A stretch of 64,000 nt of DNA from a virus (Duplodnaviria; Caudoviricetes): IMG/VR virus record IMGVR_UViG_3300035182_001152, one strand, 5' to 3'. Positions 19,087 to 22,555 of this stretch are shown here, one piece after another. The notes beneath the pieces were generated by a model. It ran no database searches and was not told where the DNA came from. It was given only the letters and a program-made list of their open reading frames with translations. The position numbers and the translations under genes were made by a program. Position 1 is the stretch's first letter, and each line of letters starts with the position of its first letter.

Positions 19087-19416
19087 ATGCAGATTCAGTG
19101 GGCAAGCTCGTATGTATACATCGTGGCAAACAAGGGTGAGGAAATCACCGAAGAATGGTGGCGCGACCCTAATATCCAACTGATGACGCGACTGAATGAG
19201 GACACCGGCGCATGTTTTGTTATGCGGCGTCGCCCAGAGCCAGCGTCAGTTCGTGAGTGGGTCAATCCTGCAACATTCGCCACCGAGCTGCGCTATTTGC
19301 ATGGGTGGGATTACACAACGGCATATAAGGGTCACATGACCTATGACATTTTGTACCTGCCCCTGGATGGTCACGTGTATACACCACGTGAGCAGGAAAT
19401 GATGAACAACAAATGA
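19087..19416 (+). CDS. Hypothetical protein, paralogue 1 of a tandem triplet
   Basis: SD GGAG. Shares WWRDP, WVNP and HVYT motifs with the next two ORFs. Confidence 0.8.
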   Translation: MQIQWASSYVYIVANKGEEITEEWWRDPNIQLMTRLNEDTGACFVMRRRPEPASVREWVNPATFATELRYLHGWDYTTAYKGHMTYDILYLPLDGHVYTPREQEMMNNK

Positions 19417-19754
19417 AGATTCAACGCCTAGACAACCAGTTAATGATCACCGCTCATGGTGATAATCGCGGCGACCCCGATTGGTGGAAAGATCCAACAA
19501 TCAGCATCGTTACATATATGGATTTGGATAGCAAATTGTCGTGGATGGCAACTCGTACTACCCCAAATCCTATCGTGAAAAATTGGGTTAATCCAACAAC
19601 GGGCGTTGTTACATTGCGTGCTGTTTGCTCGTGGGATGTGCAGGGATATGATCGTCGCGGTGAATTCTTCGACTACAGTACGTCATTCCCTGTCAACAAA
19701 CACGTATACACTGACAAGGAAGCGGCGATTTTCAATCGTCGGAATACGCCATGA
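19413..19754 (+). CDS. Hypothetical protein, paralogue 2 of the triplet
   Basis: ATGA-coupled to the previous ORF; WWKDP, WVNP, HVYT. Confidence 0.8.
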   Translation: MKIQRLDNQLMITAHGDNRGDPDWWKDPTISIVTYMDLDSKLSWMATRTTPNPIVKNWVNPTTGVVTLRAVCSWDVQGYDRRGEFFDYSTSFPVNKHVYTDKEAAIFNRRNTP

Positions 19755-20080
19755 TTACGTTTGACCGCAAGGGATCACTGCTGTTTGTTCAAAAAGACAG
19801 TAGCCACCCTATTGATGGCGACTGGTTTCGTGATCCACTGATTGATACGATCATTGTGCTGAACCTGGAAACAGGTGCGTTTGATACGTTCGAACGCACG
19901 ACTGATAAGCCATACTTCTCCCCATATACAACGACGACCTACATTCTCGTCCACGAATGGCATTTAACTGTCATCGGTCCTGATGGAATCGCACGCGTCG
20001 CGCGCCTTGAAATTGTCGTTAACAGGCATCAATACACAGAGAAGGAGAAGCAGATTTACCTCCGCCGACATGGTAGCTGA
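19751..20080 (+). CDS. Hypothetical protein, paralogue 3 of the triplet
   Basis: ATGA-coupled; WFRDP, LETG, HQYTEKE. Confidence 0.8.
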   Translation: MITFDRKGSLLFVQKDSSHPIDGDWFRDPLIDTIIVLNLETGAFDTFERTTDKPYFSPYTTTTYILVHEWHLTVIGPDGIARVARLEIVVNRHQYTEKEKQIYLRRHGS

Positions 20081-20121: not shown

Positions 20122-20601
20122 ATGGAACGAGTACTCGGGATCGATCAATCATACAACAACTGCGGTTTCGTCATGAAAGATGAAGCAAACGCGATGATTG
20201 ATTTTGGTACGTTCAAGTCAGCCAAAGCAAGCGACATCTATGACCGCGCACGACAAATCGCTGGATTCGTTGCCGACAAGGCCGTTGAGCACAACGCTAA
20301 GCGAATTCACATTGAGGGGCTGGCTTTCGGCATTCGTGGTGACGCAACACGCGATCTGGCAGGCTTGCTGTTCACGATCATTACAACGCTACGTAACCGG
20401 AACATAAATGTAGAGGTGGAAATCATCGCTCCCACGTCCCTGAAGAAATTCGCTACAGGTTCTGGGAAGTCCGATAAGGCAGCGATGATTACGGCAGTCC
20501 CAGCCGCTATTCTTGAGAAGTTCACAGAAGCAAAATACAAAAAATCAACTGGATTGGCGGACTTATGCGATGCATACTGGCTGTCCCAGTTCAAGGCATA
20601 A
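20122..20601 (+). CDS. ruvC: RuvC-like Holliday junction resolvase
   Basis: VLGIDQSY, IHIEG, PTSLKKFATGSGKSDK and DLCDAY RNase H-fold acidic motifs. Confidence 0.88.
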   Translation: MERVLGIDQSYNNCGFVMKDEANAMIDFGTFKSAKASDIYDRARQIAGFVADKAVEHNAKRIHIEGLAFGIRGDATRDLAGLLFTIITTLRNRNINVEVEIIAPTSLKKFATGSGKSDKAAMITAVPAAILEKFTEAKYKKSTGLADLCDAYWLSQFKA

Positions 20602-20630
20602 TACATAGCTACCTAATGCAGGTGCAAGCC

Positions 20631-21182
20631 ATGACAAGAAGCGAAGCCAGACGACTCAATTTGATGTACTATGATGCTACAAGGCCTTGCAAATTAGGTC
20701 ACACAAAGCGCTACACGTCAACTAGGCGATGCTGTGAATGCACTGCTTCACAGGGTAGCGAATGGCGGAGAGTCAACGTAGACCGGGTCAAGCAAACGAG
20801 TGCTGCCTATTACACAAACCATGAAGCTCGGATCCAAGCTCGAACTCACAAGTACTACGAATCTAACAAACAAGCATACAAAAACCGCAGTCATCAATGG
20901 CGTAGATTGAACCCACATAAAATTGTGGAGCATAATCGACTACGAAATACGAGACTGCAGCAGGCAATTCCTGGGTGGTTTGAGGATGATTTGGTTAAGC
21001 AGCTGTACGCAAAGAGAGATGAACTCAATGAAAGGTATGACTGGGAGTTAACAGTAGACCATATTATCCCGCTAAATCCGCGCGACGGATCGGTGTGCGG
21101 ATTGCATTGTTGGGCTAACTTACAACTACCCAGCAAGGGATTAAACGACTCCAAACGCGATAACTATATCACAGACTGGTAA
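20631..21182 (+). CDS. HNH endonuclease (probably homing)
   Basis: VDHIIPL..VCGLHCWANLQL...N..K.N beta-beta-alpha-Me motif; N-terminal PCKLGH..CCEC Zn module. Confidence 0.85.
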   Translation: MTRSEARRLNLMYYDATRPCKLGHTKRYTSTRRCCECTASQGSEWRRVNVDRVKQTSAAYYTNHEARIQARTHKYYESNKQAYKNRSHQWRRLNPHKIVEHNRLRNTRLQQAIPGWFEDDLVKQLYAKRDELNERYDWELTVDHIIPLNPRDGSVCGLHCWANLQLPSKGLNDSKRDNYITDW

Positions 21183-21500
21183 CAAGTCTGTCGCTGAAAC
21201 AACACAGCGTAATAACTAGAAACATCAGGCGGATATACCCTGCTACCGCCGGAGTGGGAACAGATCAGTGCAATGCTGATAACGAGCCCGTGGTATGGAG
21301 TCCACAGAAGTTGACCCGCTTGGGAGTAATGCCCACTTTACAAATCAAACAAGCCTGTGTAGTTCAGGCCGTGAGGTACTTCCAATCAGCCACGTTAGAG
21401 CGGGGCAGGGATCAATTATCGCTGTAGCCGGTAGTTCCGACCAGAAAAACGAATCAGCCATAATGCCGTCACGAAGTAGGCATTATGGCTGATAGCGCAG
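21171..21500. ncRNA. Candidate structured non-coding RNA of unknown class
   Basis: About 345 nt between convergent genes with no credible ORF. An 11-bp long-range helix (21238-21249 with 21400-21410) encloses several short hairpins, and a 15-bp hairpin lies at 21453-21493. Confidence 0.5.
21446..21493 (-). terminator. Probable intrinsic terminator of the leftward gp26/gp51 unit (or part of the ncRNA)
   Basis: Perfect 15-bp stem ATCAGCCATAATGCC/GGCATTATGGCTGAT followed by TCGTTTTT on the minus strand. Confidence 0.55.
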
Positions 21501-21527
21501 CTCCCTATGTTCCGGCCAGCTCAGCAG

Positions 21528-21755
21528 TTAGTAGATCGGGTTGGTCTTCTTGGCTTCCATTTCGAGTCGTTTCTCGATGAACTCGCTGACGGCCTCCCGT
21601 TCCACTCGTGTCATCTCGTACATTTCACCGTACTGAATAGCGCCTCGCATGAAGTACACTAACTGGATGATATTCGTCATCATTCGACGTTTATCTTCGC
21701 TCATTCGACGAAACATCTCGCGGACGTCGTCGTGAGAGCCCGAGCTAAGCGTCAT
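21528..21755 (-). CDS. Small baseplate hub/tail assembly chaperone, gp51-like
   Basis: ATGA overlap with the gp26-like gene; LVYFMRGAIQYGEMYEMTRVERE. Confidence 0.65.
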   Translation of the reverse strand: MTLSSGSHDDVREMFRRMSEDKRRMMTNIIQLVYFMRGAIQYGEMYEMTRVEREAVSEFIEKRLEMEAKKTNPIY

Positions 21756-22555
21756 GTAAAAAAACTGACGGGGTTCGCAGAAATCTGGACTGGCATAGTC
21801 TTCTTGCAGTCCTTACACACCTGCTCAGAAACGAACTCAATACCCCACGAAGTAGCATGCTGAGCAGTGCGCTCAATCATCTTCTTCCAGCCGAGGGGCA
21901 ATGAGATCACCCATTCACGGATGTCGTTGCGGTCTGAAACATCGTCAACACGACGGATCACACCGGTAAGAGTGTTAATGATCAACGCTTCTGCCTCCAC
22001 GTGCGTGATGTCTTCCGTCTTCGTCAAAGCGGTCGTCTGGTACAACTCAACAACATCGCTGTATGTCAAGGGCTTGAGAACGACAACCTGACCATTCGGA
22101 AGTGTTGTTTTGTACTCCTCATTGATTACCGTTGGGTCAATCACCTTTGTATTGCGGATCATCTGCTGCATATCAACCATGTAGTTGTGCGTCTTCGCAC
22201 CTTCACACGTGTGGCGATACGACACTTCCATGAATTGTCCGAAAGACACCTCACGCAGACACGCCAGCAGGAAGTCCACATCTTTTGATAGGAGCTTACC
22301 TGGCTTCAACACCTGTGGAATACAGTTGGCGAAGATTTCCGTCACTGCCTTCCCTGACAGTAGCTTGTCAGGCGTGCTCAGAATGATTTCATCCATTGCC
22401 GTCATTGGGCGAACTTCAACCTCACCGCCCTTGACGCTCGGATCCAACTCACCATCATCGTAAAAAAGACCTTGAGATGGTAAGCGGTACGTGACACCAG
22501 GGACGCGTAAGCGTTCCAATAGTGGGTTCGTACGCTTTGTTACTTGTTCTGACAT
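21752..22555 (-). CDS. gp26: Baseplate hub assembly chaperone, gp26-like
   Basis: LPSQG..VEVRPMTAMDEIIL..DVDFLLACLREVSFG..CxC; C-terminal CKDC. Divergent from the tape measure gene. Confidence 0.75.
   Translation of the reverse strand: MSEQVTKRTNPLLERLRVPGVTYRLPSQGLFYDDGELDPSVKGGEVEVRPMTAMDEIILSTPDKLLSGKAVTEIFANCIPQVLKPGKLLSKDVDFLLACLREVSFGQFMEVSYRHTCEGAKTHNYMVDMQQMIRNTKVIDPTVINEEYKTTLPNGQVVVLKPLTYSDVVELYQTTALTKTEDITHVEAEALIINTLTGVIRRVDDVSDRNDIREWVISLPLGWKKMIERTAQHATSWGIEFVSEQVCKDCKKTMPVQISANPVSFFT

Follow-up and report, generated by a model that had tools for sequence, protein, structure and literature searches.

A non-coding cassette between convergent genes

The stretch of DNA analysed here, 64,000 nucleotides of the Caudoviricetes record IMGVR_UViG_3300035182_001152 (hereafter the window), contains a non-coding gap at 21183-21527 that sits between convergent genes. 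A first-pass annotation made from the letters alone had proposed that an undescribed structured non-coding RNA of ~330 nt lies there, a proposal now supported by covariation in ~20 relatives and by negative searches with Rfam, ARAGORN and a group I intron model. Upstream, a plus-strand block that contains SbcD- and SbcC-like genes, three small paralogues and the gene for a 159-residue RuvC-like Holliday junction resolvase (20122-20601; PF02075, E 9e-5; phrog_159, E 1e-26) ends with a free-standing HNH/endonuclease VII-like open reading frame (ORF) of 205 residues (20565-21182; phrog_1035, E 6e-9). On the other side, the minus strand holds a convergent 75-residue ORF (21528-21755), recognised by synteny and by 42% identity to an ORF of the relative L001 (E 2e-20), and the gene for a 267-residue gp51-like baseplate hub assembly chaperone (21752-22555; PF12322, E 7e-10; phrog_150, E 3e-16). 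A conserved non-coding cassette of ~340 nt (21192-21527) essentially fills the gap, and comparative analysis identifies it as a member of a previously uncatalogued structured RNA family in a clade of uncultured T4-like jumbo phages. The aligned sequences show a self-contained cassette whose RNA has a pseudoknotted, strand-specific fold that is conserved and leaves many invariant bases unpaired.

The cassette begins with the hairpin P0 (21192-21209, plus strand), in which (C)GCUG and CAGC(G) enclose the loop AAACAACA. P0 covaries in 17 sequences, its closing pair being GC in nine, AU in three, CG in three and UA in one, and 94% of its cells are paired compared with 13-57% on sliding. Its 4-bp stem occurs in relatives as GCUG/CAGC, CCUG/CAGG, ACUG/CAGU, UCUG/CAGA and GCAG/CUGC with the loop AAACAA; in several genomes it encloses the RuvC stop codon, and it is missing from L359 and L355. 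P0 is one of two stacked hairpins that the first-pass annotation had drawn over the HNH stop; the other (ACAGACU/AGUCUGU, 21171-21191, plus strand, over the TAA at 21180-82), read from the sequence, has no counterpart among the relatives compared and is specific to the window. The idea that the sequence after the HNH stop is a remnant of the RuvC 3' end was dropped, as the same hairpin precedes a second-locus copy of the RNA (copy B, below). The single-stranded linker UAAUAACUAGAAAC (21210-21223, plus strand), near-invariant as AUAACUAGAAAC in alignment A8, follows P0; it occurs only once in the whole window and is therefore not a general promoter motif.

After the linker comes the structured core of 191 nt (21224-21414, plus strand), which scores 191.8 bits (E 1e-47) with covariance model R1. 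The 15-bp hairpin that had been described as ending the region was located at 21453-21493, with strands AUCAGCCAUAAUGCC and GGCAUUAUGGCUGAU and an 11-nt purine-rich loop, GUCACGAAGUA. A long hairpin occupies this position in every relative and in both genomic contexts, with purine-rich loops of 11-19 nt among which CGAAGU/GAAGCG recur. It also fits a terminator of the gp51-like operon, because UCGUUUUUC comes next on the minus strand; a plain bidirectional terminator does not describe the locus, since the 190-nt core upstream of the hairpin is conserved and covaries by itself. Contacts of the hairpin loop with a GGUAC/UUCC strand are neither supported nor excluded. The last segment is a 3' block (21494-21527, plus strand; AGCGCAGCU...CUAUGUUCCGGCCAGCU), by eye a weak form of GCGNAGCU and UAUGAUGCCGGCAUGGAGCUGG, the motifs that end the cassette in relatives of both contexts. 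It was the matching ends around the second-locus copies that set the size of the cassette at ~340 nt, larger than the core.

Covariation and strand of the core fold

Ten sequences were aligned with MAFFT, the alignment being fitted to no structure, and an RNAalifold consensus was built on the result. Compensatory change was found at 17 pairs, 94.8% of the cells were paired compared with 33-44% when slid, and none of 500 shuffles equalled the observed covariation. Covariance model R1 was built from this alignment; because the window is one of the ten seeds, its own match is by construction, and members outside the seeds score 25-172 bits. Positions 21224-21414 of the plus strand match the model over its full length, with P1, P2a/P2, P3, P4 and the invariant blocks GGGAACAGA, UAACGAGCC, AAGUUGACC, CUUGGGAGU, GAGGU..UUCCAAUCA and GCGGGG.

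An all-against-all column scan of 18 sequences revealed three pairs outside R1 that covary perfectly or nearly so: 103:117 (GC10, CG4, AU1), 164:188 (CG9, UA8, UG1) and 185:197 (GC12, AU6). These define the hairpin Px and the two stems, S1 and S2, of an H-type pseudoknot, none of them imposed by R1. The revised fold comprises nine helices and 39 pairs. Across the 18 sequences, pseudoknots included, 96.8% of 692 cells are paired compared with 30-39% when slid, compensatory change is seen at 23 pairs (124 cells), and none of 500 shuffles does as well.

All predicted elements of the core lie on the plus strand. P1 (21228-35/21244-50) is a local covarying hairpin with the loop UACCCUGC, in which GGCGG at 21228-32 pairs with CCGCC at 21246-50. 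P2a (GGG 21256-58 with CCC 21287-89) encloses P2 (21264-69/21275-80), and next come P3 (21290-93/21302-05), whose loop varies among relatives, and the 2-bp hairpin Px (GC 21318-19 with GC 21331-32), which displays the invariant loop UUGGGAGUAAU (UUGGGAG). The UUGGGA of this loop (21320-25) is predicted to form a loop-to-strand pseudoknot with UUCCAA at 21380-85. P4 (21353-57/21365-69) precedes the H-type pseudoknot, composed of S1 (CGUG 21370-73 with CACG 21391-94; consensus CGYG with YRCG) and S2 (GC 21389-90 with GC 21400-01; consensus RC with GY), and a G-rich tail (21402-14) closes the core. A contact between the P1 loop (CCC) and the UGGGA loop is neither supported nor excluded.

Every sequence quoted in the first-pass annotation lies where it was placed, among them CCCTGCTACCGC at 21238-49 and GCGGGGCAGGG at 21400-10, and three of its hairpins, ATCAG/CTGAT (21264-80), GTGG/CCAC (21290-305) and GCCTG/CAGGC (21353-69), returned as P2, P3 and P4 with compensatory changes in relatives. 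Its two long-range pairings had to be redrawn. The 11-bp helix proposed between CCCTGCTACCGC and GCGGGGCAGGG gives way to local pairing, CCGC being the 3' strand of P1 and GC 21400-01 the partner of GC 21389-90; in place of the TGGAG/TTCCA pseudoknot, which would involve the variable P3 loop, UUCCAA matches the invariant UUGGGA loop. Two helices of the RNAalifold consensus, the long-range AGUUGA/UCAGCU and the closing CGC/GCG, were likewise dropped, owing to uncompensated U-to-A changes in L384, L376 and L408 and to the covariation of position 185 with 197.

The strand, which the first-pass annotation had left open, was resolved from the same alignment. G.U cells number 47 and A.C cells 4, two pairs are G.U in 17 and 15 of the 18 sequences, and pairing falls from 96.8% on the plus strand to 90.6% when the minus strand is read. 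This G.U excess and drop in pairing indicate that the folded strand is the plus strand, co-oriented with RuvC and HNH.

The tests for known identities agreed with the earlier impression that the region is no tRNA, tmRNA, RNase P or group I element. Rfam 15 at gathering thresholds gave no match over the whole window, a permissive scan (E up to 10) of the gap and of two relatives gave chance-level matches only, and ARAGORN found 0 tRNA or tmRNA genes in the window. Three RNA-carrying records were without a match to the group I intron model RF00028 at E <= 10; moreover, the element follows a stop codon and no coding sequence resumes after it. The literature searched held no description of the RNA, though it may already be included, without a name, among the candidate viral RNAs of some bulk catalogue.

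Relatives, flanking genes and a second locus

Relatives were gathered through gp51-like protein scans of IMG/VR and of JGI metagenomes; a large protein collection supplied 320 gp51-like homologues at E <= 1e-30, many on contigs of 130-360 kb, and eleven further loci were taken around gp51-like homologues. The RNA was recovered in ~20 distinct relatives, on viral and metagenome contigs, in a gap of similar size, where the neighbouring protein is merely 54-69% identical. The common gene order is portal, a protein of ~750 residues, gp51-like and an ORF of 62-75 residues (the 75-residue ORF of the window); across a gap of 300-350 nt lie RuvC and SbcC, oppositely oriented. When aligned on an invariant CTTGGGA, the gaps display long conserved blocks with hairpins of differing sequence between them. 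R1 recovered all seeds plus L358, L384, L376, L393, L400/L401, L423/L387/L397, L408 and L419, and weaker matches were L039, the L038 group, L040 and L037/L001. The closest relative, L359, is 82% identical over the core and has its cassette immediately after RuvC. The phages with the RNA come from freshwater, sediment, microbial-mat, groundwater and wastewater samples.

Beyond this clade the searches were negative. The nearest cultured phages by gp51-like protein are RsoM2USA (40% identity), XacN1, Xoo-sp13 and Rak2-type jumbo phages; R1 found no match in the complete RsoM2USA and XacN1 genomes or in ~100 loci around more distant gp51-like genes (24-45% identity), and GenBank phages searched at the nucleotide level, with the 2-kb region as well as with the gap, gave none either. 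At L356 synteny is kept and R1 has no match; its 550-nt gap (L356:3811-4361) has a hairpin-rich look and may hold a different element. Motif patterns proved poor guides: an ACGTTA..GCGGGG pattern matched L033, L035 and L036 mostly by chance, the matches of a GATGGATAGACCGTCACA pattern in L449-451 were all unrelated, a GAGGTACTTCCRATCA pattern scan gave no new member, and the 14-mer GACCCGCTTGGGAG matched 112 viral and at least 120 bacterial stretches, of which only L187, L140 and L213 are real.

A variant found in L038, L043, L357, L140 and L213 and in L039 (e.g. L038:4105-4295, minus strand) keeps P0, the linker, P1, P2, P3 and a UUGGGAGU loop, and continues into an unrelated 3' half that has neither the UUCCAA strand nor the H-type pseudoknot. 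Judging from these variants, the 5' domain could be a separate module.

RuvC is the immediate upstream neighbour of the RNA in most relatives. The setting beside an HNH gene, part of the original description, holds for the window; in L359, L187, L349-L352, L354 and L355 the HNH gene is absent and RuvC abuts the cassette, and since most relatives lack it we regard the HNH gene as a secondary insertion outside the element. Other insertions differ from locus to locus: a P-loop kinase-like (AAA_18-type) gene and a 175-residue gene in L353, an HNH gene and a 175-residue gene in L356, and, on the gp51 side, a DUF723/treble-clef gene and a 217-residue gene in L358. Such differing insertions on either flank mark the RNA as a unit of its own with insertion-prone flanks, and its borders look like a hot spot for mobile endonuclease genes. 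Directly 5' in L353 (4348-5405) and L356 (5186-5713) stand an AAA_18 kinase-like gene and the 175-residue gene, the latter with a faint HAD-phosphatase match, a pairing that, through weak matches, recalls polynucleotide kinase-phosphatase.

The RNA also occurs at a second locus. Two related IMG/VR contigs carry two diverged copies each; on G003, copies A and B lie 76 kb apart in opposite orientation. Copy A is that of the RuvC/gp51 locus, following RuvC and convergent with the gp51-like genes. Copy B is preceded by metallophosphoesterase, CoaE-like kinase and cytidylyltransferase-like genes and, in two lineages, lies ~200 nt upstream of a co-oriented NadM-type nicotinamide mononucleotide (NMN) adenylyltransferase-Nudix gene and an AAA_28 ATPase gene; in L376 a phosphoribosyl pyrophosphate (PRPP) synthetase gene is nearby. 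Within one genome, copies A and B are ~69% identical, no closer to each other than orthologues are. In L400 the RNA has a third context, beside a gene for 299 residues. The ~130 nt that follow the copy-B cassette up to the NadM-type gene (L423:8260-8370 and L376:4985-5100) are separately conserved, including CTATATAC, a hairpin of AUGUGAUGG and CCGUCACAU and a ribosome-binding site, and are probably the promoter and leader of the NadM-type gene itself.

At its 5' end the window's RNA, a copy A, is flanked by sequence of the copy-B type, as a comparison of 21192-21227 with L423:7920-7955 and L376:4683-4718 shows. This flank carries, after P0, a 4-nt insert, GTAA, present elsewhere only at two copy-B loci, and 37 nt of the flank are identical to L423. 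This hints at exchange (gene conversion) between the copies.

Two features of the surrounding genes lie apart from the RNA. Between the SbcC-like gene and RuvC, the window has three tandem paralogous ORFs of 109-113 residues (19087-20080), and relatives have one or two ORFs of 104-110 residues at this position, matched by size and place alone. At the junction of the gp51-like gene and the 75-residue ORF there is a run of seven T (21758-21764, minus strand, T TTT TTT), found also in L001 and L187, which is compatible with a programmed -1 frameshift.

Possible roles of the RNA

We favour, with a probability of about 0.6, the reading that window positions 21192-21527 are one copy of an uncatalogued structured RNA family and give rise to a stable, independently folding RNA whose function we infer. 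The cassette would be transcribed together with the early recombination genes (SbcCD, RuvC and, in the window, the inserted HNH) or immediately after them; because no promoter was found and the linker motif is single, the simplest assumption is that it shares a transcript with the genes upstream. The RNA would then be an early product that forms the end of the upstream operon, with P0 and the terminal hairpin as its borders, and its invariant unpaired bases would form a binding or catalytic core. It would act independently, with a protein partner, as a ligand binder or as a ribozyme, and not as a regulator of a downstream gene, since at the main locus there is no downstream target for regulation and since protective ends are part of the cassette itself. 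A weak hint of transcription comes from RNA libraries, whose runs contain only small shares of the sequence words: four of them gave single low-depth contigs of relatives, one of which, 237 nt long, belongs to a true metatranscriptome (wastewater), and similar contigs belong to libraries of doubtful kind.

Among known RNAs, those of the Rfam families ROOL and GOLLD are likewise encoded by phages in intergenic regions and richly folded, with numerous unpaired bases that are invariant and no assigned biochemical function. They differ in showing no sequence or model similarity and in their length, which is roughly 600-800 nt compared with ~190 nt for the core described here; unlike them, the present RNA is not beside tRNAs, of which the window has none, and in related contigs it is present at fixed loci in two copies that have diverged. 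The T4 RNAs rnaC and rnaD (species 1 and 2) are also small, stable non-coding RNAs of a T4-type phage with no assigned role; they lie in the tRNA cluster and are shorter.

Several observations weigh against an independently folding and acting RNA. The whole gap folds modestly better than shuffles (z = -2.87 on the plus strand and -1.75 on the minus strand), yet P0 and the core alone (21192-21414) reach only a weak z of -1.23 on the plus strand and 0.03 on the minus strand; most of the excess stability thus comes from the terminal hairpin, so that the real evidence is comparative and thermodynamics alone would be insufficient to establish the RNA. The UUGGGA/UUCCAA pairing is backed by invariant bases and by one-sided U-A to U.G changes alone, the member L419 breaks it, and the variants that share only the 5' half (L038, L039) lack the UUCCAA strand. 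The RNA-library support amounts to one low-depth contig in which DNA carry-over is possible, and an upstream sigma-70-type promoter was looked for in the window and none was found. Finally, the layout of copy B, a structured domain, a hairpin and a co-oriented gene, resembles a riboswitch leader and favours a cis-acting element.

Such a cis-acting RNA controlling transcription, riboswitch-like or put/nut-like, is the main alternative and an attractive one, though less likely. The core would bind a metabolite, a protein or RNA polymerase and so determine whether transcription ends at the hairpin, which lies 40-60 nt further on; in this way copy B would control expression of the NMN adenylyltransferase-Nudix gene, and copy A antisense read-through into the late gp51-like operon. 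The core is indeed always followed by a hairpin, with a plus-strand U-tract there in L350 and L351, and the position of copy B ~200 nt upstream of the co-oriented NadM-type gene in two lineages fits as well, as does the occurrence of diverged copies with many invariant unpaired bases at different operons, typical of aptamers. Copy A, however, has no co-oriented gene after it in at least 14 lineages, the commonest context; the spacer between core and hairpin is not conserved and contains no visible anti-terminator, the AAUCAGCC repeat of the window not being found in relatives; and in copy B the separately conserved ~130 nt, with their further hairpin and ribosome-binding site, part the hairpin from the gene. 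The NAD+ riboswitch classes (nadA and pnuC motifs) are similar in having a pseudoknotted aptamer-like core followed by a hairpin, and copy B resembles their leaders in lying upstream of an NMN adenylyltransferase-Nudix gene in a block for salvage of nicotinamide adenine dinucleotide (NAD). Unlike those motifs, the RNA is far larger, shows no similarity to Rfam riboswitches, leaves copy A without a downstream gene and has no switching helix that we could find. The inverted copies 76 kb apart on G003 likewise recall putL/putR and nutL/nutR: HK022 put and lambda nut are also cis-encoded RNA elements that occur twice per genome, in oppositely oriented early operons and upstream of terminators. Yet HK022 put consists of ~70 nt in two stem-loops and shares no homology with the RNA, and copy A has nothing downstream to express.

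A DNA-level element, such as an origin, a single-strand initiation site, a recombination or packaging signal or a homing-endonuclease target with hairpins formed in single-stranded DNA, is improbable because the G.U pairs are strand-specific. The two inverted copies ~76 kb apart on G003, the endonuclease genes inserted alongside and the 37-nt 5' flank common to the window's copy A and to copy B of the unrelated contig L423, which fits gene conversion, are all in keeping with it, but the long-range and pseudoknotted pairings include strict G.U pairs (17/18 and 15/18), which the opposite strand would show as A.C. By eye, neither iterons nor direct repeats were seen, no repeat scan having been run, and the GC content of the gap (0.47-0.54) leaves no AT-rich unwinding stretch.

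Still further from the data is an OMEGA-like guide RNA of the HEARO or omega-RNA type serving the neighbouring RuvC and HNH nucleases, an idea that the phyletic pattern already largely refutes. In the window, a gene of the RuvC fold and one of the HNH type do adjoin a structured RNA, just as a ~200-nt structured RNA lies beside RuvC and HNH coding genes in the HEARO and omega-RNA of IscB-TnpB. Unlike in those systems, there is no single large effector: RuvC is a 159-residue resolvase-type protein, HNH is a separate small protein missing from most relatives, copy B has neither gene beside it, and neither HEARO nor any other Rfam model matches. Least credible of all is a small protein encoded in the gap by the 57-residue ORF (21254-21427) or the 65-residue ORF (21295-21492) of the window, one faint 9/28 local match with an L001 ORF notwithstanding: no open frame is shared by all members, the frame being closed in relatives, where the longest plus-strand stretch free of stops spans, for example, 27 codons (L349) or 23 (L358), the members vary in segment length by numbers that are not multiples of three, conserved blocks sit in different frames in different relatives and Pfam and PHROG searches gave no match, so that by comparative sequence evidence the two ORFs are not genes.

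Returning to the RNA as an independently folding member of a new family, its presence as two paralogues at fixed loci in some phages and the repeated settling of homing endonucleases beside it suggest that it is important to the phage. Most pseudoknotted RNAs of this complexity, rich in invariant bases that stay unpaired, have proved to be riboswitches, ribozymes or parts of RNA-protein machines, and new RNA classes of such size are rare. A more ambitious and quite doubtful proposal is a new ligand-sensing or catalytic RNA class tied to dinucleotide-cofactor metabolism in infection, which would time the early-to-late switch by a metabolic signal. If that were true, one copy would gate or serve an NAD-salvage module (NMN adenylyltransferase-Nudix, ribosylnicotinamide-kinase-like ATPase and PRPP synthetase), and the other would control the passage of antisense transcription out of the early recombination operon and on through the late baseplate genes. 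The RNA may yet prove an example of a known functional kind. In either case, its ~190 nt are a synthesisable target for probing, ligand screens, self-cleavage assays and cryo-electron microscopy, and the R1 covariance model can be used for annotating such jumbo phages.

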